A DNA stretch of 59,104 nucleotides from IMG/VR virus record IMGVR_UViG_3300050016_000060, positions 1 to 59,104 of that record; one strand, given 5' to 3'. The translations under genes and the position numbers were made by a program. Below the pieces are notes generated by a model. The model had not been told where the DNA came from and made no database searches. It was given only the letters and a program-made list of their open reading frames with translations. This DNA comes from a virus (lineage: Duplodnaviria > Caudoviricetes). Of the stretch, positions 4,677-58,246 are shown in pieces; the stretch's first letter is position 1, and every line of letters begins with the position of its first letter.

Positions 4677-5022
4677 GGCAATAACATACTTGGGCAATCA
4701 CATACTTGACGCATCAGGAGAAAAAATGGCAAAAGCAAAACTTGGTGGCGCGGAAGTGACCTGCGATAAATTCGTGAAAGCACTCATTGATCGGCTGCTC
4801 GGTAACGAAAAACGCATCGAGCTGCTGACCACGGAAATAAACGACTTGCGCGACCAAATGGCGGAACAAGCTGCGTGGCTCGTTGCCGGCAAAGGTTTGA
4901 GGTTCAGCAATGTTCTTGACGCTGACAGCGATCTCCCAAATTCACACACGGTATTCGTCCCTATCGAGCTATGCAAGTTTGGTGGGGAAACCGAATCCTG
5001 ATGCGTCAAGTATGTGATTGCC
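4677..5022. mobile_element. Non-autonomous IS1595-like mini-cassette carrying one gene
   Basis: Perfect 30-bp inverted repeat 4690-4719 / 4996-5025; extra partial TIR at 4677-4692; flanks CAATCGAA / CAATGAAG (degenerate target duplication). Confidence 0.8.
4726..5001 (+). CDS. Hypothetical cassette cargo protein (91 aa)
   Basis: AGGAG RBS overlaps left inverted repeat; TGA stop lies in right TIR. Confidence 0.7.
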   Translation: MAKAKLGGAEVTCDKFVKALIDRLLGNEKRIELLTTEINDLRDQMAEQAAWLVAGKGLRFSNVLDADSDLPNSHTVFVPIELCKFGGETES

Positions 5023-5161
5023 CAATGAAGGCATCCTGCGCAGCGGCAGATCGGATCGCCAAGGAGCTATCCAAGACTCTTATAAAAGACGTTTGGGATC
5101 GACTGCCGATTGCAATAGCGTTACGGCAAGCGGCCATGAACAAGCCACGAAAGGCGAAGAA

Positions 5162-5371
5162 GTGACCTACATCCTGCTGCTTTTCCTACTCCTGCCGCAA
5201 TCGCAAGCCACGACGTTCGGCTCTGCGGTGCGGTACGAGTGGCGAGCGCCGGCGTGGGAAGGGTACTACATCCCGTCCGAGCGTGTCGGCGTGGTGAGGG
5301 TTGGCGGGACGTACATCAACGTCGATCTGACGGGGGTTACGAGCAAGTGCCGAGCGACGCTGGTGTCGTGA
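5162..5371 (+). CDS. Small secreted/membrane protein
   Basis: Hydrophobic N-terminus YILLLFLLLP; GTGA overlaps. Confidence 0.5.
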   Translation: MTYILLLFLLLPQSQATTFGSAVRYEWRAPAWEGYYIPSERVGVVRVGGTYINVDLTGVTSKCRATLVS

Positions 5372-5553
5372 ATGTGGCTCACGACTCTTACGATCCGGCT
5401 GGGGACATAATCAACCAGACGTTGCCGGTGCTGTACGCCGAGAAGGTCAAGGCGTGGCAGGTTTGGTCTGACGTTTGCGACAGAGCGGTGGATTCGGTGG
5501 TGGGCGTGCATAAGGCCAAGCCTGTGAAGGAGGATGGCGATGAATCAACCTGA
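5368..5553 (+). CDS. Hypothetical protein
   Basis: ORF in operon with overlapping start/stop. Confidence 0.45.
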   Translation: MNVAHDSYDPAGDIINQTLPVLYAEKVKAWQVWSDVCDRAVDSVVGVHKAKPVKEDGDEST

Positions 5554-5806
5554 AATTATCCAAGCAGTCCAAGACCTCATCAACGCCCCGCCCTACAACG
5601 GCTCGGTGCATGATTGCTACGTGGCGTTCTGTCCGAACGGTAGCATGGGCGGGGCCGAAGTCATGGAAGTGCTAATAGCGGCGCAAGTTACTCCGCGATT
5701 CATGGAGGGCGGTTACGCTAACGCGATCATCGCCAAGATCGGCAGTAATGGCACGCTGTCCGAGGCGGAACTCGATGCGGCCATAGCGAGTAACAAGGAG
5801 GCGTGA
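5540..5806 (+). CDS. Hypothetical protein
   Basis: GGAGG RBS; 88 aa. Confidence 0.6.
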   Translation: MNQPEIIQAVQDLINAPPYNGSVHDCYVAFCPNGSMGGAEVMEVLIAAQVTPRFMEGGYANAIIAKIGSNGTLSEAELDAAIASNKEA

Positions 5807-5985
5807 TGGAGCCTATTTCAATTACAGGATGCGTCGAATGTGAGCCAGACCTTTATATCTTGCCAATTCGGTATGAAGTTCAGTCAACAACCTCACCGCC
5901 TGTTTTAGCCGAGTGGTGGCAATGGCAAAAAGCATCTGGCGGCACAGATACACCGCGATGGGTCCGTGTTATTTCAGTGGGATAA
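5803..5985 (+). CDS. Hypothetical protein
   Basis: AAGGAGG RBS. Confidence 0.5.
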   Translation: MMEPISITGCVECEPDLYILPIRYEVQSTTSPPVLAEWWQWQKASGGTDTPRWVRVISVG

Positions 5986-5988
5986 AAG

Positions 5989-7680: not shown

Positions 7681-9219
7681 ATGAAAAGCGATAACCTGCA
7701 ACCGCCGTTCCTGGGGCCGCAGTTCCCGATCTACCCGCATTTGATGCAGTTGATCCGCGTCACGGACGCTACGCCGATTCCTACGTCTAGCTCGTCGTCA
7801 TCGTCTAGCATCCAAGGCAATTACGTCTTTGCGGCAAAAACGCAGCAACAGCTTGACGTAACGGTTGCCGTGCGGGATAGGGAAGATTGCTATTTGTACG
7901 ATCCGAACGGGACTGATCTGATCGAACATATTTACACGGCCCGTCTGGTTGGCTCTTACGCTGGCTTGCCGCTGTATGCGACAACGGACGCTGTGACTTC
8001 ATCCGTTATCTACGTCTACCCCGGCATAGGCAATCCGCCGCCAGCGTATAACAGCGGTAAAACGTATGGCCAAGGCGACATCGTAAGCGACGGTGCAACC
8101 CCTAATCATGCCTTTGGCTGTTTGGTCGATGGCACGGTGGGCATTTCTCCGGTTGCCGGCCCGAATTGGGCCGATCTAGGCACGGACGTTTATTTCTTCG
8201 CCGCCAATTTGACATCCTTGGTTAATGGCGGATGGGCCGTTGGCGCTGCTATCCAAGCAAGAGAGATGAACGGACTGGCGACGGTTCCGCCTGGCTACTA
8301 TATCGCCGTCTACGAAGAGATCGAGAATGGGATTGCGACATGGGCATTCAGCGGTTTTAGACTGTTGAGATTGCTGAATACGGTTTACAACGCTAATCCT
8401 ACTGGCGGTCCAACGCTACCGACTATCGTGGAGTTCACAGGCTCAGCCCCGGCATGGAGCGCCGGCACATATCAGATGGGTGAGCATGTCAAGTGGACGG
8501 ACGGAAACGAGTACATTTCAAACTCGAATGCGAACGCAGTCGATCCAAGCAATAGCACATGGGACAGTCTCGGCAGCGTTTTGAATTTCGGCCCGCAATG
8601 GATTGTGATTCCGCAGATTGACAACGCTGGATTGCCGGCAGGACCGGCCTCGCCGAAAGTTTCTATCGGAACGATGAACAATCAGGCGCAGTTCTTTGTC
8701 GGCTTAAAAACATTCGACGCCAATATCAACATTGGTGCTGCCTACACCGGAACGTACACGGAAATCTTGGATCAGAGCGTGACAGTGTTTGAGGCAGACG
8801 GAAGCTATGCTTTTATAGGGTACGAAGGCGGGATAAGCGCCCTTGCATTATTAGTGAATACTTTTGGAGTAAGTCACACGGAGGTTACTGATGGATACAT
8901 AACTGCCTATGATGCTGATGCCGCTTCGGGAGGATTCACGACTGGCCTTCAATTCGACACGACAACAGGAACGGTAGTAGCATTCGCCAGCAATTACACC
9001 CATCCTTGTTATGCCGTTTTCGGGGCATTTGGCGTCGGATTGCAACAAGGTTTGTGGGAAACGTATGCCGGATGTTATTTTGCCGGTGGTCTTTACGTTG
9101 GCCATGCCATTCCGCCAATCGTGGCCGATGGAACTTATACGGTTGGGTTGGGCGTGACGACAGACGGTACGATCACGATAACCAACGGCGCTATTACATT
9201 TATTCAACAGGCATCGTGA
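7681..9219 (+). CDS. Tail fibre / receptor-binding-like protein with CBM5/12-like modules
   Basis: 512 aa Gly/Thr/aromatic-rich; AYNSGKTYGQGDIV and AWSAGTYQMGEHVKW carbohydrate-binding-type motifs; C-terminal TITITNGAIT. Confidence 0.65.
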   Translation: MKSDNLQPPFLGPQFPIYPHLMQLIRVTDATPIPTSSSSSSSSIQGNYVFAAKTQQQLDVTVAVRDREDCYLYDPNGTDLIEHIYTARLVGSYAGLPLYATTDAVTSSVIYVYPGIGNPPPAYNSGKTYGQGDIVSDGATPNHAFGCLVDGTVGISPVAGPNWADLGTDVYFFAANLTSLVNGGWAVGAAIQAREMNGLATVPPGYYIAVYEEIENGIATWAFSGFRLLRLLNTVYNANPTGGPTLPTIVEFTGSAPAWSAGTYQMGEHVKWTDGNEYISNSNANAVDPSNSTWDSLGSVLNFGPQWIVIPQIDNAGLPAGPASPKVSIGTMNNQAQFFVGLKTFDANINIGAAYTGTYTEILDQSVTVFEADGSYAFIGYEGGISALALLVNTFGVSHTEVTDGYITAYDADAASGGFTTGLQFDTTTGTVVAFASNYTHPCYAVFGAFGVGLQQGLWETYAGCYFAGGLYVGHAIPPIVADGTYTVGLGVTTDGTITITNGAITFIQQAS

Positions 9220-9226
9220 GGTACTC

Positions 9227-9757
9227 ATGGCAGGAACGCTAGGAACCGCCGCATTGCAACCTACCAGCGCCTTCGTGAGTTCAACCGCGCTGACCACGAA
9301 GGGCGATTTGTTGGCCTACAGCACCGCGATTGCTCGCCTCGGCGTTGGCTCAAATGGCCAAGTCCTGTCGGCGGATTCTACGCAGACAACTGGCCTGAAA
9401 TGGGTAGCTGCTGGCGGGTCTGGGACAGTAACAACCGTCTCCGTCGTCACCGCCAACGGCGTCAGTGGCAGCGTGGCTAACCCGACAACTGCGCCAGCGC
9501 TTACCTTGACAGTATCGCCAACGGCCATCGGCCTCTACGCCGGCAGCTTCTCGCAAGTTGGCACGGCAACCACGACGTTCACGGTTACAATAGGGGTGAC
9601 ATTGGCGGCGAACACTTTCAAGGTGAACGTGACGCCAACGGCGCTGCTGAGCGCGGCGGCGTTCTATGTGACGAACAAAACCACGACGACGTTCGACGTG
9701 GTTTACTTGGCAGGGCTGACCGGCACGGTGACGTTCGATTGGATTCTCAAGACGTGA
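9227..9757 (+). CDS. Tail fibre-like structural protein
   Basis: TTKGDLL...RLGVGSNGQVLSADS..TGLKW, GTVTTVSV, KTTTTFDV motifs typical of fibre repeats. Confidence 0.7.
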   Translation: MAGTLGTAALQPTSAFVSSTALTTKGDLLAYSTAIARLGVGSNGQVLSADSTQTTGLKWVAAGGSGTVTTVSVVTANGVSGSVANPTTAPALTLTVSPTAIGLYAGSFSQVGTATTTFTVTIGVTLAANTFKVNVTPTALLSAAAFYVTNKTTTTFDVVYLAGLTGTVTFDWILKT

Positions 9758-9764
9758 TTTCCTC

Positions 9765-9793
9765 TTGACGCCTCACTTTCATTTCTGTATTCT
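9765..9793 (+). promoter_or_regulatory. Sigma70-type promoter of RHH / glycosylation operon
   Basis: TTGACG-17-TATTCT. Confidence 0.6.
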
Positions 9794-9801
9794 TGTCAAA
9801 C

Positions 9802-9978
9802 ATGGCAACGGTTAAACAGCAAACACGAATCCTGGCCTTGCGCGCGCCGGAAGAAACATGCAAGACGATTGAACGCATCGCGGCGCAGCGAACGATCCGC
9901 ACGGGCAAGCGTTGCACGACGACGGACCTCTTGCGAGAGGCCGTTGCGGAGAAGATCAAGAGGGAGACGAAATCGTGA
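9802..9978 (+). CDS. Ribbon-helix-helix DNA-binding protein
   Basis: ILALRAPEE...IERIA...TTTDLLREAV pattern. Confidence 0.6.
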   Translation: MATVKQQTRILALRAPEETCKTIERIAAQRTIRTGKRCTTTDLLREAVAEKIKRETKS

Positions 9979-10217
9979 AAAAACAATGCCTTAACTGTCG
10001 ATTCTGGGAGGACTGTGAGCCGGAAGAAAAGCCGTATCCAGAAGAAATTGTGCCAGGTTGCGGAGTAACCTTCTTGTCGAAATATGGTATTTGCCGACGT
10101 TATCCTCCCGATCCTTGCCCACCGGAAGGAAACCACGGATGGGCGGTTCTGAACTTTAGCGAATGGTGCGGAGAGTGGAAACCGATTGCGGCAAAAATAA
10201 AGAGGGAGGCGAGATGA
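9975..10217 (+). CDS. Cys-rich hypothetical phage protein
   Basis: CLNCRFW...CRRYPP...WCGEWK. Confidence 0.65.
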   Translation: MKKQCLNCRFWEDCEPEEKPYPEEIVPGCGVTFLSKYGICRRYPPDPCPPEGNHGWAVLNFSEWCGEWKPIAAKIKREAR

Positions 10218-11146
10218 AGATTCTTTTCGTCACCCATCGAGGGGGCGATTATTTGGCCTCGATGATTTGGGACGGCGCACAATCGCTCTTTGGTGAAGAG
10301 AACGTCTACGATGCCGTGAACAATCCTGGCCTTCACGCGGGCGGCGACTGGAATCCCATGTCCCGAATCAGCGGCACGCGGCAAGGGAAAATTCTTGGTG
10401 ATGAAGGCGACTTCGACTTGATGATCCTGAACGCTTGCTTTCTCCGCGATTTCGATTGGTCCCTTCCCGGCAAGTTACGCGAACGCATGAAGCCACGGGC
10501 GAAGATTGCTTACGTCGAAGGATGGGACTCGGCAGCGGAGCATCACGAACCGCCAACGTGGATGCGGATTAGTGATTGCTTCCGACGCGAGATTGATCCA
10601 TCCATCCGGTATCCGTTCCTTCGCGTTTGGCCGCTTTCGTTCGCAGCCCCGGAGCGATGGTTCGATGGAGCGGAGAGCAATGATCGACCGTGGGATTTAT
10701 TCTTCGCGGGAGCGGTGGACGGTTCAGGCGATACGTCGCCAGTTCGTTGGGATATGCTCGCTCCCATGTTCCAGACGCGGACGAAGCATCATTCGATGAT
10801 TGCCACGGGCAGCATCGGCATGGATGGCTACTTCGATATGCTCCGCAAGAGTAGGATAGGATTGTGCCCACCAGGGGCGGCGCAGAGCGTGGCCATGCGT
10901 GCGTTTGAAATCGTGGCTTGCGGGGCAATACCGTTTTTCATCGGAATGCCGCAATGGGAGCGTGATCCGTGGTTTGGTCCCGATACGTCGTTCTCTTGTC
11001 AGCTTGCATCGGGCTTGCCGGACATGATCGCCGCAGCGTTACGAAGCGATCTTGAGCCGATGCGGTTGGCGTGCATCGCTCATGCTAGGCAGCATCACAC
11101 GACGAAGGCCCGCGTACAGCAAATGCTGGAAAGGATGGGGGTATGA
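10214..11146 (+). CDS. Glycosyltransferase (GT-B, Glyco_trans_1_2/CgeB-like)
   Basis: Y.DML.KSRIGLCPPG....MRAFEIVACGA...HHT...RV motif; GGAGG RBS. Confidence 0.75.
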   Translation: MKILFVTHRGGDYLASMIWDGAQSLFGEENVYDAVNNPGLHAGGDWNPMSRISGTRQGKILGDEGDFDLMILNACFLRDFDWSLPGKLRERMKPRAKIAYVEGWDSAAEHHEPPTWMRISDCFRREIDPSIRYPFLRVWPLSFAAPERWFDGAESNDRPWDLFFAGAVDGSGDTSPVRWDMLAPMFQTRTKHHSMIATGSIGMDGYFDMLRKSRIGLCPPGAAQSVAMRAFEIVACGAIPFFIGMPQWERDPWFGPDTSFSCQLASGLPDMIAAALRSDLEPMRLACIAHARQHHTTKARVQQMLERMGV

Positions 11147-11529
11147 GCATGTATGGCGAGTACAACATGGAACCGGACTACGCTCAAACGTATCGCGAAA
11201 ACAAGAGCGATGAAGCGATACGCACCAAAATGTCCATGCTTGAAGGCTTGGCGAAAGCGTTCCTGGACCATACCGGCTTGACGCCTGATCGCGTCGAATT
11301 GTGCCAACAAACGCGCGGAGCGGAAATTGTCTGGTACTTTCGAGAGCGGATAGAATTGCCCATTGTCCAGAGCGAACTAACCTATCGCGGAGTGTCTTTC
11401 GTTGGTCACATAACGCCAGCAGGAACATTGGCAATGCACGCCACGCCCGTTACCGTCCCCGAACCGGAAGAGGAAGCCGACGAAGAAGATGACGACGGAG
11501 CCGACACGCCGATCATCGTGGACGCCTAA
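11143..11529 (+). CDS. Hypothetical protein with acidic tail
   Basis: 128 aa ORF, ATGA overlap. Confidence 0.6.
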   Translation: MSMYGEYNMEPDYAQTYRENKSDEAIRTKMSMLEGLAKAFLDHTGLTPDRVELCQQTRGAEIVWYFRERIELPIVQSELTYRGVSFVGHITPAGTLAMHATPVTVPEPEEEADEEDDDGADTPIIVDA

Positions 11530-11531
11530 CG

Positions 11532-12970: not shown

Positions 12971-13200
12971 GAATAGGATTGCCTTGTACAAAACGCATGA
13001 CGACTAAAGATGCAAGGATATTTTGCAATCAATTAAAAAAGGTGATGCTCAAGACTATTGCTGCAAACGAGCCTGTAACGGCATCATACGGTGATTGCTT
13101 TGGCGGATCAGGGAGGGGAATTGTATTTATTGAGCGTTCAATTGCTTGTAATGTTAGATCAATAATGAGGTCCATCAGATCGCGGAAAAAGAACCCATGA
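12967..13200 (+). CDS. Hypothetical basic protein (lower GC)
   Basis: Overlapping start and stop with both neighbours. Confidence 0.5.
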   Translation: MRIGLPCTKRMTTKDARIFCNQLKKVMLKTIAANEPVTASYGDCFGGSGRGIVFIERSIACNVRSIMRSIRSRKKNP

Positions 13201-16581: not shown

Positions 16582-16596
16582 AAAAAAATGACGGAT

Positions 16597-49423: not shown

Positions 49424-49429
49424 GGTTCA

Positions 49430-49458: not shown

Positions 49459-49588
49459 GACCCTTCCACGATGCTGGCAATATGTGAGCCCTGGGAGCCG
49501 GGCTCTGGGTTGTGTTGCTGTGGTACGGATGGGTCGTGCTGGATTGCTGGCTCGTGATGCGCTGGCTGCTGGCGTGAAACCTACAAGC

Positions 49589-49741
49589 CTAGAACTCTCT
49601 TCGCCTCCTGCAGTCGTTTGAACGGCCCCTCGCCGCGGATTTTTTGCGTTTTGCTTTTTTCTTCCGGTATCGTTTTTCCGCGCGGTCAAGTTCACGCTTG
49701 CCAACCGCCAGGAGAGCGCGGAGTAATTCGTCAAAGGTCAT
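49589..49741 (-). CDS. Small basic protein coupled to IS1595-like gene
   Basis: MTFDELLRALLAVGKRELDRAEKR..., homologous to 56378-56518. Confidence 0.65.
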   Translation of the reverse strand: MTFDELLRALLAVGKRELDRAEKRYRKKKAKRKKSAARGRSNDCRRRREF

Positions 49742-50622
49742 TGCCGTTGCCCCCGACAGATGCGGTGGATATATCGGATTGGCACACAAAAACGTTCGGC
49801 CAATTCAGCTCGCGACACGGATTCCTTGACCCGATGAATCTCAGCAATCTGTGCATCGGTCAAGAGTGCAAGGTGTTGTCGCTGCCCTCTCGCAGTGGTT
49901 CCGTGCCGGCGCTTGTCAGCCGCATTTTCCAAAGGCGTGCCCCATGCGAGATTATCCAACCGATTGTTCTCGCGGTTGCCGTCGAGATGCCTTGCCTCTT
50001 TGCCGTCTGGTCGTGGCCCAATGAACGCGGCGAGAACGATTCCAGCAACATTGACGTTGCGGCTTGCGGACTCGCTTCGCAGCGAAACACACCGATAGCC
50101 GTGACCGTTCAGCGTTGGATGCAGAAATTTCCACGGGCCATGAAATTTCGACCAAACCGATCCATTACTCCCAACGCGGTATGCCGGGAATCCGGCAATT
50201 GGACGATATTCTACGTGCGGTTCGGCGAGCAAAAATTCTTGAGTCTCCATCGCGACTTTGAGCCGGTGCAAAAGATACCACGCGGACGGCTGGCGGATGC
50301 CGAGCGCCCGCGCGAGTTCGCAACTGCTGATCCCGTTCTTGGCGTTGGCTCTACACCAGACGGCCACGAACCACTTATCCAAGCCGAGCGGCGAATCTTC
50401 AAAGATCGTCCCGACCTTCGCGGAGAATTGCTTGCGGCACCCAGCCGCTTTGCATTGGAGCATACACCGACTGGCGATGTTGCCGATCTTGTCCCCGCCG
50501 CATTTCGGACAGGTGATTTTCCCGTCCGGCCATTTCAGGCGGATCATGTAGGCGTGACACTCGCCGAGATCGGCGAAGTGCGTCACGGCTTCGATCAGGG
50601 TTTTTGGTCCGTTCTCGTTCAT
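49738..50622 (-). CDS. Fusion: IS1595 transposase Zn-ribbon + HTH joined to NUMOD4-HNH endonuclease
   Basis: KWPDG..CPKCG...CRKQFSAKVGTIFEDS.L.L.KWF...KNGISS..LAR.LG....AW..LHR then YRPIAGFPAYRV...G.VWS, HLDGNRENNRLDNLAWGT..EN. Confidence 0.85.
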   Translation of the reverse strand: MNENGPKTLIEAVTHFADLGECHAYMIRLKWPDGKITCPKCGGDKIGNIASRCMLQCKAAGCRKQFSAKVGTIFEDSPLGLDKWFVAVWCRANAKNGISSCELARALGIRQPSAWYLLHRLKVAMETQEFLLAEPHVEYRPIAGFPAYRVGSNGSVWSKFHGPWKFLHPTLNGHGYRCVSLRSESASRNVNVAGIVLAAFIGPRPDGKEARHLDGNRENNRLDNLAWGTPLENAADKRRHGTTARGQRQHLALLTDAQIAEIHRVKESVSRAELAERFCVPIRYIHRICRGQRQ

Positions 50623-51610: not shown

Positions 51611-51683
51611 GTCGAGTTCCTCACCCGACACCTTAATTATACCGGATAGCGTCGATGAGTCAAGCGTATAGTCTAGTTATTTT
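51611..51683 (-). promoter_or_regulatory. 73-bp direct repeat copy 1 containing strong promoter
   Basis: TTGACT-16-TATAAT; identical to 52904-52976. Confidence 0.85.
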
Positions 51684-51731
51684 GAAAGATTTATCAAAAT
51701 ACTTTCCTGACGTTCCCGACAGGTTTTACTC

Positions 51732-51755
51732 TGATGAGCCAAATGGATAATCACC
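51732..51755 (-). repeat. IS1595-like TIR (no partner found)
   Basis: GGTGATTATCCATTTGGCTCATCA. Confidence 0.7.
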
Positions 51756-52014
51756 CAAGCAAGTGCAGGGCATCTTGCGGTGTGCGAGCGCAGTAGATTC
51801 TCTGAGCGAAAGCTGGACTGTCAGCGTATGCCGAGTAGACGTTGTGCCGCGTATTGCAATCGTCGCAGAGTGTCGGCACGGTCATATCAGGTTCAATCGG
51901 AGCCATCCCAGGCATCCCGAAGTCAAGGACTTTGGGGTTGTTCGACCAGAACAATCCATCGTCAGATTCGCGGCCACAATGGGCACACAGACCGCCAAGT
52001 TTTGCCGAGCGCAT
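51751..52014 (-). CDS. Small Zn-binding hypothetical protein
   Basis: CAHCG...LCDDC; GGAGG RBS; stop codon inside the TIR. Confidence 0.6.
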   Translation of the reverse strand: MRSAKLGGLCAHCGRESDDGLFWSNNPKVLDFGMPGMAPIEPDMTVPTLCDDCNTRHNVYSAYADSPAFAQRIYCARTPQDALHLLG

Positions 52015-52164: not shown

Positions 52165-52863
52165 TCAATGGGTGTGGCTCCGGCTGATTTTCGTGGTGCC
52201 GTCGGGTTGGGCGGTTTCACTCAGAATGTCGATGTCACATTCCTCGACCGAACCGTCACACGTCGCACTCCAGCGCCGAATCTCGACAGGCCGGCCGGTC
52301 AACTTGGCCTGCTCAAACGCGGCTCGGCGCTTCGCCTGACGTTCGGCGTTTTTCGCGTCCAGCTTGGCTTTCTCTTCGTCCAAGCCGGGTTTGGCGAAGG
52401 CGACAGCGGCGGGATAGGTGAAACTCTCGCCTAAGGCGTCGATCACTTCGTTTTTGACGTGCGTTCCCCAGCCGCGAACGTCTTTCGCCAGGCCGAGCTT
52501 TTCCAGGAGTTCGGCCGCGTACCCAGAGACCGCATAGCCGGTCAGGTATTCCCCGTCGTGATAGTGATAGGTGACCTTGATTGGATCGGTGCCGTTTTCG
52601 ATTCGCTCGTGAGAGGCTTTTTCTTCGGCCGCTTTTGCGTCGGCCGCTTTTTTCTGCTCAGCCACAATTTCTCGGACCTTGGCCGCGAGTTCCGGTTTAT
52701 CCGCGATTCGGACCTTCAGCGTCCGCTTCGCCCCGCCGACGGTCTGGGTGCCGAAATCCACCATCGTCTCGCCGTCCTGCTGGACGATGCGACCGCCGGT
52801 GAACGTCCCGCCGCCGAGTATGCCGGCCGGTGCGGTCCAAGTGATGCTTTTTTCGTTCGACAT
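52165..52863 (-). CDS. Hypothetical early protein
   Basis: 232 aa; AAGGG RBS; first gene after promoter copy 2. Confidence 0.7.
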   Translation of the reverse strand: MSNEKSITWTAPAGILGGGTFTGGRIVQQDGETMVDFGTQTVGGAKRTLKVRIADKPELAAKVREIVAEQKKAADAKAAEEKASHERIENGTDPIKVTYHYHDGEYLTGYAVSGYAAELLEKLGLAKDVRGWGTHVKNEVIDALGESFTYPAAVAFAKPGLDEEKAKLDAKNAERQAKRRAAFEQAKLTGRPVEIRRWSATCDGSVEECDIDILSETAQPDGTTKISRSHTH

Positions 52864-52903
52864 GGTTTTTCCCTTTCGTGCCCCGGGTCGGCCAGGGTTG
52901 CCG

Positions 52904-52976
52904 GTCGAGTTCCTCACCCGACACCTTAATTATACCGGATAGCGTCGATGAGTCAAGCGTATAGTCTAGTTATTTT
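52904..52976 (-). promoter_or_regulatory. 73-bp direct repeat copy 2 containing strong promoter
   Basis: Identical to 51611-51683. Confidence 0.85.
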
Positions 52977-53025
52977 CGGATTTTCCCGAAAATAGTTTTC
53001 TTGCCGTCCCGAAAGGCTCGGGGCG

Positions 53026-53049
53026 TGGTGCGTCAAGTGGATAATCACC
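53026..53049 (-). repeat. IS1595-like TIR abutting target sequence CAAATGAA
   Basis: GGTGATTATCCACTTGACGCACCA. Confidence 0.75.
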
Positions 53050-53070
53050 CAAATGAAGGCAATAATATAG

Positions 53071-53099
53071 TTGACTCACCACGCTCCGCTGCCTATAAC
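53071..53099 (+). promoter_or_regulatory. Promoter whose -35 lies inside the left TIR
   Basis: TTGACT-17-TATAAC, 6 nt before ATG 53106. Confidence 0.65.
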
Positions 53100-53105
53100 G
53101 AGAGT

Positions 53106-53882
53106 ATGAGCATGACAGAAAAACGCATCGAACTTTGGTCTTGTGGCGGCGGTCGGCAGTCAGCCGGTATCGCGGCCTTCATCAAGGAAGGCTTGCTCCC
53201 CAGGCCGGATCATGTCGTCATGGTCGCCTTGGAATGGGAAGTGCGGACGGTCTGGGCCTACGTCAACGCCTACATCCGCCCCGCAATGGAATCGCTGGGT
53301 ATCCCGTTCACAGCCATTCCACGAAAGAAGTACGCGACGAAAGACTTCTGGGGCGGCGCAGACGGCGATTCCACGCTCTTGCCGGTCTACACGAACCAAT
53401 CGGGCGAGAACTCCAAGCTGCCAGAGTTTTGCAGCGGGGAGTGGAAGCGAGAAGTCGTCAAGCGCTGGGCCGCTGAACAACCTGGGTGGAAAGATCGCGG
53501 GGTAAATTGCTGGACTGGCATCAGCAAGGATGAGGCGGGCCGTCGCGGTGTCGCGCGGGCCTTGTGGTACGGGCCGACGTATCCCCTGCTCGATGTCCTC
53601 TGCACTCGCGTTGCCGGTTGCCTGATGGCTGTAGAGCGTCAAGGATGGCCAGCCCCGCCACGTTCGCGGTGTCGGCATTGTCCGAACCAGCAAGACGCGG
53701 AGTGGGCCGAACTGACTCCCGAAGAGTGGGAGCTTGCCTGCCAGACCGATGAAATGGTCCGCGAAGTCGATCCCCACGCTTTCCTGCATAAGAGCATGAT
53801 GCCGCTGCGAATGGTTACGTTGAATCCAGACGACGACAACGGCGGCTTGTACGGTGGATGCCAGAGCGGAACTTGTTGCTAA
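53106..53882 (+). CDS. PAPS reductase-like / PP-loop adenine nucleotide alpha-hydrolase family protein
   Basis: SCGGGRQS, CSGEWK, GISKDE, YPLL, PPRSRCRHCP, terminal GCQSGTC. Confidence 0.8.
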   Translation: MSMTEKRIELWSCGGGRQSAGIAAFIKEGLLPRPDHVVMVALEWEVRTVWAYVNAYIRPAMESLGIPFTAIPRKKYATKDFWGGADGDSTLLPVYTNQSGENSKLPEFCSGEWKREVVKRWAAEQPGWKDRGVNCWTGISKDEAGRRGVARALWYGPTYPLLDVLCTRVAGCLMAVERQGWPAPPRSRCRHCPNQQDAEWAELTPEEWELACQTDEMVREVDPHAFLHKSMMPLRMVTLNPDDDNGGLYGGCQSGTCC

Positions 53883-53891
53883 AGGTGAACC

Positions 53892-54431
53892 GTGATTGAT
53901 GAGAAGAAATCGACGGAAGCAGTTGCACTTGAACACGGCATGAATTGCCCACATAGGACGCCGAACAGCGACGACGATTGCACCTGCGGATTGCGTTGGC
54001 GGATCGCTCTCCAAACAGAACAGACGATGCACGCCGCATGGAGGAAGAGAGCCGAGGAAGCAGAAGCCGCGATTGCCGTTAGCTCTCAAGATGCCGTAGC
54101 CAAAGAATGCGAACGAATCAGCATCACAATCTACATGGCCGGGGACATCGCCCAGGCCAAGCAGATCATCCGTGGTTTTTGTTGGGCTCGCGGCTGGTGC
54201 GTAACGGTGACGCCAACGGCGTACATCTACTCCGGTGGTGAAGAAAGCGGCTTCATTGTTGGAATCGAAAACTATCCGCGATTCCCTTCCACGCTGGATG
54301 AATTGACCGGGAAGGCAAAGGAACTTGCCGAACGATTGGCCGTGCTTCTCTTTCAGAAAAGTTACATGATCTGCACACCAAAAACGACATTCTGGCAAAC
54401 CGACAAAATGCCTTTTGAAAAGGACAGTTGA
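53892..54431 (+). CDS. Conserved phage hypothetical protein
   Basis: IYMAGD...CVTVTPTAYIYSGGEESGFIVGIENYPRFP. Confidence 0.7.
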   Translation: MIDEKKSTEAVALEHGMNCPHRTPNSDDDCTCGLRWRIALQTEQTMHAAWRKRAEEAEAAIAVSSQDAVAKECERISITIYMAGDIAQAKQIIRGFCWARGWCVTVTPTAYIYSGGEESGFIVGIENYPRFPSTLDELTGKAKELAERLAVLLFQKSYMICTPKTTFWQTDKMPFEKDS

Positions 54432-54579
54432 ATGAACGCAGACGGACCCCAAACCCTGATCGAAGCTGTGAAGCACTACGCTGATCTCACGGTCTGCCAT
54501 AACTACATGGTCAAGCTGAAATGGTCTGATGGCCGGATCGTCTGCCCGAAGTGTGGTAGCGACAAGATCGGCTCGGCAA

Positions 54580-54807
54580 TCACATACTTGACGCATCAAG
54601 GCCCGTCTGGGCTTTCACTAGCGCGAACTTCGCGCCGTACTTGATCTCGGCATCTTTAGTGGCCCGTCGTCTTGCTTCTCTCCCGTCGTTCCATCCGGCC
54701 ATGAAATCTTCGTCGTTCTGCATTCCCGCCGGCGTTGGCTGAACCGCCGCTGAACAAAACCACCCACGCATGTAAATCATCATCAGGTTGTACTGGTCTG
54801 CGCTCAT
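54580..54807 (-). CDS. Hypothetical cargo protein
   Basis: GAGGAG RBS; stop codon inside TIR. Confidence 0.6.
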   Translation of the reverse strand: MSADQYNLMMIYMRGWFCSAAVQPTPAGMQNDEDFMAGWNDGREARRRATKDAEIKYGAKFALVKAQTGLDASSM

Positions 54808-54816
54808 GTCAACTCC

Positions 54817-55026
54817 TCAAAAGTAGTCGTCATCCAGAGGTTCGTATTCCTTCATGACTGAGCCAGTTCCTTGGCATCGAGAGCATTCACGCACGCGAAG
54901 AAGATCGTCAACGATTGATTGCAACTCGCCGCTTCCCTGGCAATCTGGACACTCGTCACCTTCCTCGTGGTTTCCATCCCCGTTGTTCCAGTCGTAAGGT
55001 TCAATCGGGCAACCGTGATAGTCCAT
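54817..55026 (-). CDS. DnaJ-type zinc-finger small protein
   Basis: CPDCQGSG...CSRCQGTG. Confidence 0.65.
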   Translation of the reverse strand: MDYHGCPIEPYDWNNGDGNHEEGDECPDCQGSGELQSIVDDLLRVRECSRCQGTGSVMKEYEPLDDDYF

Positions 55027-55031
55027 GTCGG

Positions 55032-55655
55032 TTACACCTTCTTTCCTGTCAGCCGTTCAAATATCTCAATCGTCTTCCATCCTTGCTCTGTCATCAGGTC
55101 CGCAAGAATGCAGTTGTCGGTCTTCAAAGTGGAATGCTTGATCTGACGTGCGTATGCCGTCAATCCAGCAATGAACCCGTGATGAAACGCCGTCGCCTCT
55201 TCAACCGTTTGCGGGCCTGTGAACGGTTCGCTAGAACACGTTACCAATACTTCCGGGAGGAACTCATCTGGTCGGCATTCCTTGCAAAAATACTCCGATC
55301 CGGCTTTGTGGTCGCACTTGATGTCGAGCGGCGGAAACTCGTTGCGGTCGTCTTTCGGATTCCTATCGTCCTTGATTTCTTCGAGTTGAAAAATAGATGC
55401 CGCCAACTTTTCAAATTGGTTCCCTTTCATCGGGCAGTCCGCTTCATTGCACCTAACGAAGTGGTGACACGCAAGGAATGTCGTGTTGCACTTCAGGCAA
55501 ACCTCGTCAACCAATCCATCACGGTAGGCTTGCACTTGCATCTCGACCAACTTGGCGTCCGGGAACCGTTGACGATGCAGCGACTCCGCAGCTTCCCTTT
55601 CGTGGCCAGTCGAATTACGTTTTCTTGCTTCACTCATAGATTTTCTCCTATTCAA
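55032..55655 (-). CDS. Cys-rich hypothetical cargo protein
   Basis: 207 aa ORF; start may be ATG 55637 (AGGAG RBS). Confidence 0.6.
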   Translation of the reverse strand: MNRRKSMSEARKRNSTGHEREAAESLHRQRFPDAKLVEMQVQAYRDGLVDEVCLKCNTTFLACHHFVRCNEADCPMKGNQFEKLAASIFQLEEIKDDRNPKDDRNEFPPLDIKCDHKAGSEYFCKECRPDEFLPEVLVTCSSEPFTGPQTVEEATAFHHGFIAGLTAYARQIKHSTLKTDNCILADLMTEQGWKTIEIFERLTGKKV

Positions 55656-55876
55656 TCACCAGGGCAGTTTTCCGGGAATCCACATACCGTGTCGTGACAA
55701 TCGCAACCGTCGTGCGGATCAGCGCCGCATATTTCGCAGTCGTCGCTGTCCATTTCGCTGGCATCGCCTACAATTCCATCCCAGCAATCAAAGCAAAGAT
55801 CGGTTTGCTGTCCTTGCCATTCGCCAGACCATTGAACATCGAATTGCGTCCCGCAGATTGTGCAAGTTCTGTCCAT
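55652..55876 (-). CDS. Small Cys-rich cargo protein
   Basis: CTICG...CFDC...CEICG. Confidence 0.6.
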   Translation of the reverse strand: MDRTCTICGTQFDVQWSGEWQGQQTDLCFDCWDGIVGDASEMDSDDCEICGADPHDGCDCHDTVCGFPENCPGD

Positions 55877-56064
55877 TACTTCTTAACCTCGTCGATCCAA
55901 GATCGAATCCAGTAATTGAAATGCTTGTGCGCCAACGTGAACGCCTCTTGCTCTTCCTTCGTCAACGTCGATGAACTTCCGCCCAGCATCCCGTACCTCG
56001 GATCGCGGTCGATGTTCGCCAGCAGTTTTTCAAAATCGGCTTCCGCCAGGATGTAGGCTTTCAC
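55876..56064 (-). CDS. Hypothetical cargo protein
   Basis: GGGAGG RBS adjoining the TIR. Confidence 0.65.
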   Translation of the reverse strand: MKAYILAEADFEKLLANIDRDPRYGMLGGSSSTLTKEEQEAFTLAHKHFNYWIRSWIDEVKK

Positions 56065-56377
56065 GGACCAACCTCCCTTGATGCGTCAAGTATGTGATTA
56101 CCATCGGCTCGATTGCCACGCGATGTATGTTGCGCTGCAACGCGAAGGGATGCCGGAAACAGTTTAGCGTCAAGGTCGGCACGATCTTTGAGGATTCCCC
56201 CCTGGGTCTCGACAAGTGGTTCATCGCGATCTGGTGCGTCATCAATGCCAAGAACGGCGTCAGCAGCTACGAGATTCATCGGGCGCTTGGCGTTACGCAA
56301 AAGACGGCCTGGTTCATGGACCATCGAATCCGCTTGGCACTCAAGACCGGCACGGCGGGTTTTATGGGGATCGAGTG

Positions 56378-56518
56378 ATGGCAAAATCCAAGGAAGCAAC
56401 GGCGTTCGATAAGGCGATGGCCGCACTTGTCCAAGTTCCGAAATCGGAACTTGACAAGGCGCTGCGCGAAGAGGCGCGGGCGAAGAAACGCCGCAAGCAA
56501 CGCAAGCACAAGCGATGA
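56378..56518 (+). CDS. Small basic protein coupled to IS1595-like gene
   Basis: MAKSKEATAFDKAMAALVQVPKSELDKALREEARAKKRRK. Confidence 0.65.
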   Translation: MAKSKEATAFDKAMAALVQVPKSELDKALREEARAKKRRKQRKHKR

Positions 56519-56622
56519 TGAATTTAGCCAGCATTTTCGCCCTCGCATGAATCAGTAATCCGTGGTGAGCCAAGTATGTCATTACCCAAATGAAACTTGG
56601 CTGCTTGTGTTTGCGAGGGCAA

Positions 56623-58191
56623 TCATATACTTGACTCATCAGCCGAAAAACCGCTGCCACAGAACGCAAAAAGCAACCGCGCCACAAGCCGGGACGACTG
56701 CATTTCCCAGCGCGCGAAGCTCATCGGTTCGACTGTTTGGAGCGTTGCCCATCCCATCGGCAACCCCTGTAGCCACTCCACGAATCGCGGATTGAGTCGC
56801 GGGCGCGAGGTCGGGCCTGACGGCAAGGATGCGCTCCCATTCGGCTCTGGCGGCGGGGCCTGGGGGCCAGTAAGGGATTCCTGAAATATCCGCACTTGGT
56901 CCGTGATCGTTGTCGTGATCGGCTCGCCGTCCTTGTTTCTCGGCATCTCCCCAGGTGCCCATGTCGCTTCTTTCGTTCCCGCTGACATTTGATTTCTTGG
57001 CGTGGCCCATTGGCTCATCGTCTGCTCCACCGACTTCGCAAACTCCCCGCCCAGCCCCTGCTTGCCCGTCGCATCCACTCCCGCCATCCCTGCTGGCGTC
57101 GGCCACAACTCCGAAGAGGCAGTCGGGACAGGTTCCTCGATGTTCATCGCTGATACGCCGGAAAACAAGTCCGCTTCCTTTGCAGGTCGTGCAAATTCTT
57201 CGATCGCTCCCCGCAGGCTGTCCTGCTTCCCCGGATGGTTGCCGCAACTCTCCGAGTCCTCCGCTCGTGGGGTCGGCCACGTTCCCGTTTGGCGATTCAG
57301 ATTGGCCCCCTGCGTCGATGTCTCGTCCACTCCCGGCCGTCTGCCGTCGTGCGATGTCGGGCTGTTCCACAGCGATTCCGTTTCCAGATTCTCCATGAGG
57401 ATATTTGCTGCTGCTGCTGCTGCTGCTGGCGAATGGCGTGCCCGTTCCGAGGGACAATCCAGATTCGCGTTTTTTGTCGGAGTCGGCCAGCACTTCGTCG
57501 CGCCCGTCAGACTGTCCATCGCGTCGGGGTGGTTGCCGCAACTTTCGGAGTCCTCGGCTCTGGGGGATGGCCAGTTGCTCGCCTCTTCGCACAACGCCCG
57601 AAAGCCCAGGGCCTTCGCTTCGTCGCTGCATACCGGCTCTTTGTGCTCCGAACTTCGCGGCGTAGGCCAAGAGGAAGAACCGTTCCCGCCGCTGGGGCGC
57701 TCCAACGTCTTCCGCCGCCACACTGATCCACTCCGCATCGTACCCGTCTTCGGCCAGCTCTCCGAGTATCCGAACGATGGGAGCTGTAAGCTGCTTTCCG
57801 CGCTCTGGAATAGCGATCCCTGGCACGTTCTCCAGGAAGAGGAATGGCGCTCCCACGTCGCGAAGGGTTCGCCGCAAGGCGGGCCAGAGATTTCTTGGAT
57901 CGCGTTCGAGTTCACGCTTTCCGGCGATGCTGTTTCCCTGGCAAGGGATTCCCGCAACGACGCAATCCACGAGACCGCGAAAGCCTTTGCCTTTGAAGGT
58001 GGTAAGGTCCGTCCAAATAGGCGCCGGATCAAGCCGCCCTTCTTCCATGCGCGTTGCCAGAACTTCGGCGGCATAGATTTCCCTCTCCAAGTGAACGAGC
58101 GTGCGAACGCCTGGCATTGCGAGTCGGACGGACAATCCGAGTCCGCCGATGCCGCTGCAAACTTCGATAGTTGTGAAGGAATTATCCACAC
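56623..58191 (-). CDS. Overlapping-frame partner of the methyltransferase (WPTP repeats + motif IX-like end)
   Basis: 522 codons open, same strand; repeated W-P/N/A-T/S-P; RLNPRFVEWLQGLPMGW. Confidence 0.7.
   Translation of the reverse strand: MWIIPSQLSKFAAASADSDCPSDSQCQAFARSFTWRGKSMPPKFWQRAWKKGGLIRRLFGRTLPPSKAKAFAVSWIASLRESLARETASPESVNSNAIQEISGPPCGEPFATWERHSSSWRTCQGSLFQSAESSLQLPSFGYSESWPKTGTMRSGSVWRRKTLERPSGGNGSSSWPTPRSSEHKEPVCSDEAKALGFRALCEEASNWPSPRAEDSESCGNHPDAMDSLTGATKCWPTPTKNANLDCPSERARHSPAAAAAAANILMENLETESLWNSPTSHDGRRPGVDETSTQGANLNRQTGTWPTPRAEDSESCGNHPGKQDSLRGAIEEFARPAKEADLFSGVSAMNIEEPVPTASSELWPTPAGMAGVDATGKQGLGGEFAKSVEQTMSQWATPRNQMSAGTKEATWAPGEMPRNKDGEPITTTITDQVRIFQESLTGPQAPPPEPNGSASLPSGPTSRPRLNPRFVEWLQGLPMGWATLQTVEPMSFARWEMQSSRLVARLLFAFCGSGFSADESSI
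56639..58189 (-). CDS. dcm: DNA cytosine-C5 methyltransferase (alpha-type chain)
   Basis: Motif I CSGIGG, IV GIPCQ, VI LENVPG, VIII QRRERFF, X LRALGNAVVP; motif IX not in this frame. Confidence 0.9.
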   Translation of the reverse strand: MDNSFTTIEVCSGIGGLGLSVRLAMPGVRTLVHLEREIYAAEVLATRMEEGRLDPAPIWTDLTTFKGKGFRGLVDCVVAGIPCQGNSIAGKRELERDPRNLWPALRRTLRDVGAPFLFLENVPGIAIPERGKQLTAPIVRILGELAEDGYDAEWISVAAEDVGAPQRRERFFLLAYAAKFGAQRAGMQRRSEGPGLSGVVRRGEQLAIPQSRGLRKLRQPPRRDGQSDGRDEVLADSDKKRESGLSLGTGTPFASSSSSSSKYPHGESGNGIAVEQPDIARRQTAGSGRDIDAGGQSESPNGNVADPTSGGLGELRQPSGEAGQPAGSDRRICTTCKGSGLVFRRISDEHRGTCPDCLFGVVADASRDGGSGCDGQAGAGRGVCEVGGADDEPMGHAKKSNVSGNERSDMGTWGDAEKQGRRADHDNDHGPSADISGIPYWPPGPAARAEWERILAVRPDLAPATQSAIRGVATGVADGMGNAPNSRTDELRALGNAVVPACGAVAFCVLWQRFFG

Positions 58192-58246
58192 GATTCAGCC
58201 TCTTGATGAGCCAAGTATGTAATTGCCCTTCATTTCCATGCTTCGC

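Follow-up and report, generated by a model that had tools for sequence, protein, structure and literature searches.

Probable hitch-hiking of phage accessory genes in transposon cassettes: IS1595-type ends around genes of a peat-soil phage

The IS1595 family includes passenger-carrying members, and ISNwi1-type ends are known within it, with the subgroup end sequence ggnnatTAT. Mobile insertion cassettes (MICs), a term in use for the mobilomes of Bacillus and Aeromonas, are exemplified by MIC231 of the Bacillus cereus group, which has IS4/IS231 ends. The mycobacteriophage mobile elements MPME1/2 are ~440 bp long, have short inverted repeats and one small open reading frame (ORF), and differ in presence or absence between related phages; to our knowledge, their repeats measure 11 bp, they are not known to be related to any IS family, and they lack an 8-bp duplication. 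T4-type phages harbor promoter/stem-loop modules that act as a comparable kind of portable homology. For IS1595, the 8-bp target duplication and both transposase domains are stated in the accessible part of PMC8101967. IS elements are rare in phages according to the accessible part of PMC11602168, which puts the share of viral sequences with vMITEs at 0.01% and counts 99 vMITEs in the phages of one genus of Acidobacteriae; IS1595 has 0 occurrences in that part, and the supplementary tables of the paper might list the family.

Here, we analyzed a peat-soil phage genome in which genes are enclosed by IS1595-type terminal inverted repeats (TIRs). The window is the whole linear viral contig of 59,104 nucleotides, rated 80% complete, and contains four TIR-bounded units (A, B, Y, and Z), two solo ends, and one partial end. 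Judged by their sequence, the units are non-autonomous IS1595 cassettes, like MICs, with mobilization presumably in trans, and it is very probable that they are derivatives of an IS1595 lineage that were gathered by the phage in its accessory region and moved in trans. At least two of the cassettes bear clear marks of having jumped into their present sites, so accessory genes of phages can move in this way. No close relative of the phage was found in the collections searched.

A 24-bp motif is present in the window in 10 full copies (4693+, 4999−, 51732−, 53026−, 53058+, 54575+, 56079−, 56563−, 56618+, and 58204−) and one 16-nt partial copy, compared to 0.27 full copies expected by chance (mean of 100 dinucleotide shuffles; largest 3). 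An earlier sequence-only reading had proposed a TIR family with the consensus GG(C/T)(A/G)AT-N6-(C/T/G)TTG(A/G)C(G/T)CA(T/C)CA at these positions, and all ten full sites fit it with 0 mismatches. A profile built from 161 ends recovered the same ten sites and the partial copy at 4677 to 4692 (plus strand, E 0.003), which consists of the first 16 nt of the motif and directly abuts the full copy at 4693; no further match in the window was better than E 1. Conservation does not extend past the 24-mer on either side (≤0.8 bit in the flanking columns), and three window ends read GGnnATnAT, consistent with the ISNwi1 end consensus. As had been noted, the motif has exactly the same sequence at 4693, 4999, and 54575, but the 50 kb said to separate these copies may be much less on the real genome, since the contig is linear and incomplete by its rating.

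The same motif is widespread in bacteria. The degenerate 24-mer was found at at least 120 bacterial loci, versus ~17 expected by chance by our own estimate. Among the matches listed, these loci are mostly from Acidobacteriota and Planctomycetota; all seven inverted pairs are arranged plus-then-minus, 2.1 to 5.3 kb apart, with perfect 8-bp duplications, and six of the seven enclose a protein with DDE_Tnp_IS1595 and Zn_ribbon_IS1595 domains (E 1e-40 to 1e-45). A full-length transposase was detected by tblastn in 39 of the at least 120 loci, again among the matches listed. Four other viral loci also have a full-length transposase between the same TIRs, 55 to 62% identical to the bacterial ones, and one of them belongs to a complete phage genome, which has direct terminal repeats; CAAATTTG is duplicated there. 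The sequence-only reading had suggested looking for the cognate intact transposase; candidate donors are present in bacteria and in other phages. The GG-starting TIR consensus is common to the window, the bacterial IS copies, and the viral IS copies. Because DDE transposase elements with 8-bp duplications have this 24-mer at their ends in both bacteria and other viral contigs, we assign the motif, by sequence comparison, as a true IS1595-family TIR, in line with the earlier assignment. The IS lineage with this TIR occurs commonly among Acidobacteriota and Planctomycetota of soil and peat, and several unrelated phage genomes also harbor it. No experimental transposition test of this IS1595 lineage was found in the literature searched.

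How much of a transposase does the window itself retain? DDE_Tnp_IS1595 gave no match in six frames at E ≤10, in agreement with the earlier claim that no DDE catalytic domain is present, and three full transposases used as tblastn queries matched the window with only their N-terminal ~140 aa. Two N-terminal remnants of IS1595 transposases, at 49738 to 50622 (minus strand) and 54432..56378 (plus strand), had been overlooked. Zn_ribbon_IS1595 is found in the former at 50428 to 50562 (minus; 35.3 bits, above cut-off) and in the latter at 54495 to 54566 (plus; 22.3 bits), where it is cut short by unit B.

Unit Y is a plus-strand element of 3,529 bp (53058 to 56586; 53050..56594 with its duplications), with TIRs at 53058 to 53081 (+) and 56563 to 56586 (−) and perfect direct repeats of CAAATGAA at 53050 to 53057 and 56587 to 56594. 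It carries a PAPS-reductase-like gene (53106 to 53882), a phrog_4848 gene (53892 to 54431), and a 137-aa transposase N-terminus in two pieces (54432 to 54574 and 56103 to 56378, plus strand), which lacks the DDE half and is followed by the 3′ subterminal region. Y is plainly a decayed passenger-carrying IS that has kept only the DNA-binding third of its transposase. Its empty site, another item on the earlier list of checks, was found in a 280-bp contig of run X3, an independent peat metagenome from a different study: the contig joins 53046 to 56584 with 0 mismatches and skips 3,537 bp (3,529 + 8), exactly Y plus one duplication copy. The depth of this contig is 2.8, and the left side of the junction covers 25 nt (36 nt with 11 letters fitting either side). 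Most of that left side lies in the TIR, a repeat family. The junction could conceivably stem from another element that shares this end variant and occupies this site.

Unit B is a minus-strand element of 1,528 bp (54575 to 56102; 54567..56110 with its duplications) nested in the transposase remnant of Y. Its TIRs, at 54575 to 54598 (+) and 56079 to 56102 (−), differ by 1 mismatch and are bordered by perfect repeats of ATCGGCTC at 54567 to 54574 and 56103 to 56110. Between them are ~five small minus-strand ORFs (54580 to 54807; 54817 to 55026, zinc-finger-like; 55032 to 55655; 55652 to 55876; and 55876 to 56064) and no transposase. In viral locus L019, the counterparts of 54432 to 54571 and 56103 to 56326 form a single uninterrupted stretch, and the same holds for the window's own paralogue; ATCGGCTC is duplicated at the junctions in the base-level alignment. 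The remnant is thus split by B at the duplicated 8-mer, and its homologues elsewhere are intact.

The two pairs reported earlier to have perfect 8-bp duplications, two of the four in the window, are thereby verified, and the probability of at least two perfect 8-mers among the 13 possible plus/minus pairs in the window is 1.8e-8. At least two units, B and Y, are true insertions: B by its interrupted gene and target duplication, and Y by its exact empty site in an independent sample. The PAPS-reductase-like passenger of Y is 66 to 70% identical to homologues from three other viral contigs, where the surrounding DNA available contains no TIR. These homologues, the two insertions, and the X3 empty site all speak against the situation that the sequence-only reading had named as refuting, in which relatives hold the same genes at the same positions without TIRs and neither empty sites nor relocated cassettes exist.

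No duplication, interrupted target, or empty site was found for the other two units. Unit A (4693..5022, plus strand, 330 bp) has identical 24-bp TIRs at 4693 to 4716 (+) and 4999 to 5022 (−), part of a 30-bp perfect inverted repeat, and its flanking 8-mers match at 3 of 8 positions. It is filled by one 91-aa orphan ORF (4726 to 5001) with a ribosome-binding site and a positive codon score, which starts 9 nt past the left TIR and uses the first triplet of the right TIR as its stop codon; this ORF has no Pfam, PHROG, or Atlas match. Unit Z (56618..58227, minus strand, 1,610 bp) has TIRs at 56618 to 56641 (+) and 58204 to 58227 (−), with flanking 8-mers that match at 2 of 8 positions. It had been read as two overlapping genes, but the plus-strand ORF has no support, and the sole supported gene in Z is a minus-strand DNA methyltransferase (56623 to 58191; phrog_1008, 3.7e-25; blastn matches to phage methylase genes) that starts 12 nt past one TIR and stops inside the other. 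The two solo right-hand ends, both on the minus strand, comprise the TIR at 51732 to 51755 with ~120 bp of conserved subterminal sequence (51611..51755; motif and profile), for which no partner left end was found, and the TIR at 53026 to 53049 with its subterminal region (52904..53049; motif, profile, and repeat). The first is 83% identical to 52904 to 53052, a 151-bp direct repeat connecting both ends, and resembles the subterminal regions of viral loci L009, L017, and L019. Inward of the second are ORFs at 52165 to 52917 (−) and 51751 to 52014 (−), and a 250-aa ORF there has a weak phrog_33472 match.

The units resemble IS1595 elements in their ~24-bp GG-starting TIRs, the 8-bp duplication, and the extra genes between the ends (2.1- to 5.3-kb units). 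In contrast to intact relatives, whose transposase combines an N-terminal Zn ribbon with a C-terminal DDE_Tnp_IS1595 domain, they have no DDE domain, and three lack any transposase remnant; they also reside in a phage genome, with one nested inside another. A, B, and Z, each enclosed by inverted IS-type ends and devoid of a transposase gene, are pure gene cassettes comparable to MICs, in which IS ends likewise surround coding passengers and a cognate IS is presumed to act in trans. They differ from MICs in having IS1595 rather than IS4/IS231 ends and a phage as the host replicon, and their passengers are phage accessory genes whose start and stop codons touch the TIRs. The passengers of the window (methyltransferase, PAPS-reductase-like, phrog_4848, zinc-finger-like small ORF, and orphan ORFs) are unrelated to transposition. 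Like the vMITEs in the accessible part of PMC11602168, the units are non-autonomous TIR elements common to prokaryotes and their viruses, but vMITEs are defined there as noncoding, whereas the window units carry one to several genes and, in one case, a transposase remnant. Unit A is within the size of a MITE (under ~0.5 kb, noncoding) but is filled by its ORF, and in this respect it looks like MPME1/2. A true 176-bp noncoding TIR pair does exist in another viral record, G004. Homologues of the A, B, and Z genes were not found elsewhere, so that the search for relocated cassettes, which the sequence-only reading had proposed, gave no copy, and the cassette proteins of the window did not match the passengers of the at least 120 bacterial loci among the matches listed.

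A full-length IS1595 transposase would act in trans on these units; its gene would lie on the host chromosome, in a co-infecting phage, or in the ~20% of the genome that the contig does not cover. It would bind the TIRs via its Zn-ribbon/HTH N-terminal domain and insert the unit by an 8-bp staggered target cut, and units or ends without duplications would result from later TIR-TIR recombination or deletion. The missing duplications of A and Z and the two ends without a partner count against transposition in trans. The proposal that the phage uses these ends as a gene-shuffling system holds as far as units without a DDE transposase and at least two true insertions are concerned; its notion of a system in the service of the phage is not supported. 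Given the decay of Y, the lack of duplications in two of the four pairs, and the two solo ends, the arrangement looks like invasion by parasites, decay, and rearrangement, a description at least as apt as an adapted shuffling device.

Could the TIRs, along with the ~125-bp subterminal repeats of some ends, serve as portable homology for homologous or microhomology recombination between co-infecting phages, rather than for transposition? Perfect 8-bp duplications are found in only 5 of 13 viral pairs (3 of 9 in other viral records) versus 7 of 7 bacterial pairs listed (Fisher one-sided p 0.010), A and Z lack them, the solo ends are joined by the 83%-identical 151-bp repeat, and a CAAATGAA-like 8-mer or its reverse complement adjoins 6 of the 11 window ends. 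However, the exact duplications of B and Y and the gene split by B are a signature of DDE transposition, 24 bp is short for efficient homologous recombination, and recombination after transposition explains the missing duplications equally well. We thus regard such recombination as unlikely to replace transposition and would rather place it on top of transposition, as an additional process.

Transposition in trans must also be weighed against a factor encoded by the phage, the 294-aa fusion protein at 49738..50622 (minus strand), inward of the solo TIR at 51732. It consists of an IS1595 transposase N-terminal Zn-ribbon/DNA-binding domain (aa 1 to 130; PF12760, 1.1e-7; positions 3 to 54 of 215 in NF033547), an I-HmuI-like HNH nuclease (PF13392, 1.9e-11), and a C-terminal HTH. 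Its TIR-binding domain might guide an HNH nick or cut to TIRs, leading to homing-like copying of cassettes into TIR-bearing genomes or to attack on competing TIR-carrying genomes. The N-terminal 130 aa are 48 to 70% identical to the N-termini of six bacterial transposases from elements with the same TIRs, and aa 138 to 255 match residues 2 to 118 of the PDB 1U3E chain, the I-HmuI catalytic domain (E 5.8e-6), with the nuclease placed behind the IS1595 DNA-binding domain and replacing the DDE domain, unlike in I-HmuI-type homing endonucleases. Ten fusion proteins of this family conserve the four zinc cysteines and H212, N224, N233, and H240; in viral record G002, the same two modules, with an in-frame stop between them, lie between two TIRs at the transposase's place, and in G004 an HNH gene adjoins a full transposase inside one element. 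Nevertheless, the gene sits in a half-element with a single end in the window, and an HNH nick makes no 8-bp target duplications and so leaves B and Y unexplained. The HNH half has seven viral homologues, six of which stand alone, with the nearest 4 kb devoid of TIRs; the fusion may therefore simply reflect the landing of a homing endonuclease gene within a gene for a transposase. We consider a trans-acting role improbable.

The motif could also be a phage regulatory signal at gene boundaries, either a phage RNA polymerase promoter or halves of long-range RNase III stems. Sense copies end 9 to 30 nt upstream of start codons and are immediately followed by ribosome-binding sites, the stop codons of three units fall within antisense copies, and the GACTCAC of T7-type promoters resembles the motif core. 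As a primary identity this is contradicted and very improbable: in many bacterial genomes, the 24-mer encloses genes for DDE transposases and is accompanied by 8-bp duplications (the motif is present at at least 120 bacterial loci), its orientation is inconsistent, with copies pointing against the gene at three 3′ ends, and no Rfam family matched. A secondary regulatory role of the TIRs inside the phage may exist. Finally, that the clustering arose from repeats joining pieces of different genomes is scarcely credible, even though the contig is metagenome derived and the source run's Logan graph has breaks at the 51.6- and 52.9-kb subterminal repeats, as a 24-bp repeat is shorter than the assembler's words and a source-run contig spans 52947 to 58400 unbroken. 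Its depth is even at 34.9, compared to 30 to 42 in neighboring pieces of the run, and a chimeric assembly is thus excluded for Y, B, and Z.

The consensus of the sequence-only reading is matched without a mismatch at ten sites in the window, of which four lie on the plus and six on the minus strand. As that reading had stated, 4693, 4999 and 54575 carry identical copies. Dinucleotide shuffles of the window gave a mean of 0.27 consensus matches and a maximum of 3. A terminal inverted repeat (TIR) profile built from 161 end copies (151 from other loci and 10 from the window) recovered the same ten ends and a 16-nt partial copy at 4677-4692 (E 0.003), with no further window end better than an E value of 1. 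The repeat is 24 bp long, because in the 151 nonwindow copies the information content drops at once to ≤0.8 bit on both sides of the 24-mer. The identical copies had been described as 50 kb apart, which is true of contig coordinates, but contig ends are arbitrary and the 4.7-kb and 51- to 58-kb sites may therefore be far nearer to each other on the real genome.

The degenerate 24-mer was found in at least 120 bacterial genome stretches, where we estimate that about 17 would be expected by chance. The 80 titled bacterial rows among the matches listed, counted by eye, comprise 49 Acidobacteriota (26 of them Pyrinomonadaceae or Pyrinomonadales), 12 Planctomycetota, 4 Verrucomicrobiota, and 15 others. 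All seven two-copy bacterial loci among the matches listed have the plus-then-minus arrangement, with the copies 2.1 to 5.3 kb apart, and all seven pairs are flanked by a perfect 8-bp direct repeat. Six of these pairs have beside one end an open reading frame (ORF) of 306 to 321 aa with DDE_Tnp_IS1595 (E values of 1e-40 to 1e-45) and Zn_ribbon_IS1595 domains; in the seventh, L058, the single ORF examined encodes a DUF3800 protein. A full-length transposase was detected by tblastn in 39 of the 120 bacterial loci listed. Passages of PMC8101967 give an N-terminal zinc finger, a C-terminal DDE_Tnp_IS1595 domain, and 8-bp duplications as features of the IS1595 family. Since six of the seven bacterial pairs show all three, the motif is a true IS1595-family TIR, bearing out the type originally proposed. 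The element sizes show that passenger genes are common in this lineage. The suggested ISNwi1 subgroup would fit the end consensus of its members. None of the window cassette proteins found a match in the 120 bacterial loci listed.

No match to DDE_Tnp_IS1595 exists in any frame of the window, and full-length transposases used as tblastn queries match it with only their first ~140 residues, at two places, confirming the reported absence of a DDE catalytic domain. The largest TIR-bounded segment, unit Y (53058-56586, 3,529 bp), runs from one TIR through a PAPS-reductase-like gene (phrog_424, 4.8e-21), a phrog_4848 gene, a cut transposase gene, and a subterminal region to the right TIR. Its transposase gene ends after 137 residues, precisely at the expected start of the DDE domain, and the sequence after this remnant is homologous to the 3' subterminal region of intact elements. 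Homologues of the PAPS-reductase-like gene, 66 to 70% identical, occur in three other viral contigs and have no TIR within about 0.7 to 4 kb on each side, so this passenger is an ordinary phage gene that was taken up by the element. Unit B (54575-56102, 1,528 bp) lies inside the truncated transposase gene of Y. The segments 54432-54571 and 56103-56326, which flank B, align to one unbroken stretch of a viral locus (L019) and also to the window's own paralogue at 50.3 to 50.6 kb, and the 8-mer ATCGGCTC, single in the reconstructed reading frame, is found on both sides of B; on these alignments, B interrupts a gene that is intact in its homologues. B has no transposase and contains about five small minus-strand ORFs, one zinc-finger-like and the others orphans; its 207-aa ORF had no viral homologue in a search that catches close relatives only. 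The two perfect 8-bp duplications originally claimed are those of Y, which has CAAATGAA on both sides, and of B, and the chance of at least two perfect 8-mers among the 13 possible window pairs is 1.8e-8. A CAAATGAA-like 8-mer or its complement adjoins 6 of the 11 window ends, and 4 of 12 perfect duplications start with CAAA (CAAATGAA, CAAATTTG, CAAAGAAA, and CAAATCTG; from the window and loci L058, L010/L011, and L151). These starts and flanks suggest a target preference or insertion beside existing ends.

An empty site, a feature whose absence had been named as evidence against mobility, was seen for Y: a joint lacking this unit was found among Logan contigs from four peat metagenome runs of four studies, in a run (X3) that is not the probable source sample. 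One X3 contig (280 bp, depth 2.8) joins 53022-53046 directly to 56584-56838 and shows no other difference. The joint skips 3,537 bp, equal to Y plus one copy of the duplication, and its two sides share 11 letters, made up of the final three of the TIR and CAAATGAA. Contigs crossing both ends of unit Z (56618-58227) also occur in this run; the X3 population consequently retains Z, the spacer, a single CAAATGAA, and the solo end at 53026 but lacks Y. The left side of the joint is 25 nt (36 with the shared letters) and mostly TIR, and its TIR variant and four interior letters occur in the window at the 53026 end only. Less probably, another element that sits at this site and shares the end variant may have given the joint. 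The nest of units is not an assembly chimera, since a contig from the source run covers 52947-58400 unbroken at even depth. An apparent joint between 51500 and 54432 on opposite strands reflects a paralogous Zn-ribbon gene instead of a rearrangement. No joint skipping B was seen among the Logan contigs of the four runs, two of which (X2 and X4) cover small shares of the window only.

Unit Z carries one DNA methyltransferase gene (phrog_1008, 3.7e-25), and unit A (4693-5022, 330 bp) carries one orphan ORF of 91 aa. Neither unit has a target duplication (2 of 8 letters agree at Z and 3 of 8 at A), and the idea that A had inserted into the partial copy at 4677 was rejected because the expected second CATACTTG is absent. 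A viral search that catches close relatives only found no homologue of either product, and the Atlas gave nothing usable for the 91-aa ORF. The methyltransferase gene has an internal 82-bp repeat (57198-57573 region), and an X4 contig jumps in frame from 57097 to 57272, leaving out 174 bp, and so represents a methyltransferase length variant in another sample. The solo ends at 51732 and 53026 have 151 bp in common at 83% identity, a stretch that takes in the TIR, some 120 bp of subterminal sequence, and a 3-nt flank; no left-end partner for them was detected by the TIR profile at an E value of ≤100 or by eye in 49380-49760.

Genes fit closely between the ends. Sense TIR copies stop 9 to 30 nt upstream of a start codon, and three stop codons are overlapped by antisense copies. 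Within A, B, and Z, 9 to 14 nt separate one TIR from the first start codon, and the last stop codon falls inside the other TIR. A phage promoter or processing signal as the primary identity of the repeat is nevertheless ruled out by public sequence, in which the motif bounds bacterial IS1595 transposase elements; a secondary regulatory role inside the phage may exist. The TTGAC within the TIR was considered as a -35 box and dismissed, as no correctly spaced -10 box was seen by eye ahead of the start codons; Rfam families had no match in the window.

The lineage is also found in other phages. The degenerate 24-mer occurs in 14 viral contig stretches, and the IS1595 lineage is present in at least 11 viral records, including two genomes that are complete and have terminal repeats. 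The terminase of the window had no match in nine of the ten other TIR-bearing records and a weak one (E 5e-5) in the tenth (G002), and by this comparison these ten are not relatives of the window phage. Full-length transposases bounded by TIRs are present at four viral loci (L010, L019, L020, and L022, in records G001, G004, G005, and G009); the 68-kb genome of G001 is complete, bears direct terminal repeats, and has its element between duplicated copies of CAAATTTG. A 1,483-bp unit in record G003, likewise rated complete, encodes a single methylase (PF01555) and no transposase and lies between duplicated copies of CTGCGGAG. The methyltransferase of the window gave no tblastn match to this methylase, and the G003 unit is a second single-methylase cassette whose methylase is unrelated to the window's. 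The 28-kb record G004 (locus L151) has nine TIRs in 13 kb (7908-20723), including a 176-bp noncoding pair, two full IS1595 elements, and a 975-bp unit with only a C-terminal transposase fragment, indicative of a deletion derivative; inside one element an HNH endonuclease gene lies directly upstream of the full transposase. Perfect duplications flank 5 of the 13 viral pairs examined, compared to 7 of the 7 bacterial pairs listed (one-sided P = 0.010), which suggests more rearrangement between copies in phages or entry by recombination. Parts of PMC11602168 describe viral miniature elements (MITEs) and hold that insertion sequences are rare in phage genomes and their insertions quickly purged, PMC9145550 mentions IS1595 only for host genomes, and we found no description of gene-carrying IS1595 cassettes in phages in the literature outside supplementary tables.

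The window units are most probably nonautonomous IS1595 derivatives moved in trans, of the mobile insertion cassette kind that the literature records in bacteria. The nature of the ends, the insertion events of B and Y, and the absence of a DDE domain rest on direct observation. As to the donor enzyme, the reaction chemistry, and how A, Z, and the solo ends arose, we infer that a full-length transposase from the host, a coinfecting phage, or an unsequenced part of the genome would mobilize the units, and that later TIR-TIR recombination or deletion would have left units and ends without duplications. The sequence-only reading named the ends correctly, and the refutation test that it set did not overturn it. 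Its further proposal, that the phage uses these ends as a shuffling system, goes beyond these results; Y displays the ordinary decay of a parasitic element. The passengers of the enzyme-less units (a DNA methyltransferase, the PAPS-reductase-like gene, and small orphans) are typical accessory genes, and one unit, Y, is present or absent between natural samples. Such presence and absence offers a concrete route for morons and anti-restriction genes between phages and between phage and host, an alternative to illegitimate recombination, and the insertion sequence lineage is suggested as a host-linkage marker for peat phages.

The minus-strand gene at 49738-50622, which lies inward of the solo end at 51732, encodes a 294-aa fusion protein. 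Its residues 1 to 130 share 48 to 70% identity with the N-terminal domains of six bacterial transposases of the lineage, and this domain reaches 83% with other transposases. The second half, an HNH_3 nuclease, matches the I-HmuI homing endonuclease in its catalytic domain (1U3E, 5.8e-6), and a helix-turn-helix match at the C terminus falls below the Pfam gathering score. Nine of the best 120 homologues, window protein excluded, cover at least 85% of the fusion (eight annotated with PF12760 and PF13392, one with PF12760 only); the remainder are ordinary or truncated IS1595 transposases. The ten fusion proteins keep four zinc cysteines together with H212, N224, N233, and H240. G002 has the same two modules with an in-frame stop between them, enclosed by two TIRs, and six further viral proteins homologous to the HNH half stand alone, without a TIR nearby. 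The simplest reading would be that a phage homing endonuclease gene replaced the DDE half of a transposase gene. It is rather unlikely that this swap, with TIR recognition kept, yielded a TIR-guided nickase that spreads cassettes or cuts rivals. Such an enzyme would let TIR-bounded cassettes pass between coinfecting phages via homing-type repair or, alternatively, would cut rival genomes bearing TIRs; if so, it would be a transposon/homing endonuclease hybrid, and the phage would own cassette exchange machinery. Supplementary tables aside, no description of a Zn-ribbon/HNH fusion was found in the literature, and this rare family is a candidate new enzyme class.

The window is an entire IMG/VR record, a linear viral contig of 59,104 bp rated 80% complete, with a large terminase gene at 47294-48847 and genes for portal, minor head, head decoration, and adaptor proteins and a Holliday junction resolvase; it has no tRNAs. 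Megablast of 20 kb of the window against 50,697 phage records gave no match, distant blastn returned short methylase matches only, and a terminase-anchored search yielded one viral locus at 31% identity and one 1.9-kb metagenome contig without informative flank. A 286-aa protein (16674-17534, minus strand) scores 69.8 bits (3.2e-19) against the NCBIfam TIGR-Tas RNA-guided endonuclease model NF052498, short of the 100-bit cutoff, and also matches the C-terminal part of IS110 RNA-guided transposases (2.3e-8), with no sequence match in the PDB. Its gene is directly preceded by a 27-nt inverted repeat (17531-17628 region; 89% complementary), and tandem-repeat and repeat scans found no array beside it. 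A sugar-modification-like block on the plus strand (10163-19805) encodes a GT47/GT1-like glycosyltransferase, a radical SAM/SPASM protein, a GT9 heptosyltransferase-like protein, and a protein with a heptose kinase/adenylyltransferase-like C terminus. An inverted duplicate of ~300 bp at 73% identity links a small-ORF region (3883-4155) with 44818-45114, a stretch among the packaging and head genes some 2 kb away from that for the terminase. A DUF6527/phrog_15183 protein is encoded immediately beyond unit Z, close to the end of the contig (58696-59025, minus strand), and the contig start (1-157) has a ~60-bp tandem repeat in which 1-97 matches 61-157 at 90%.
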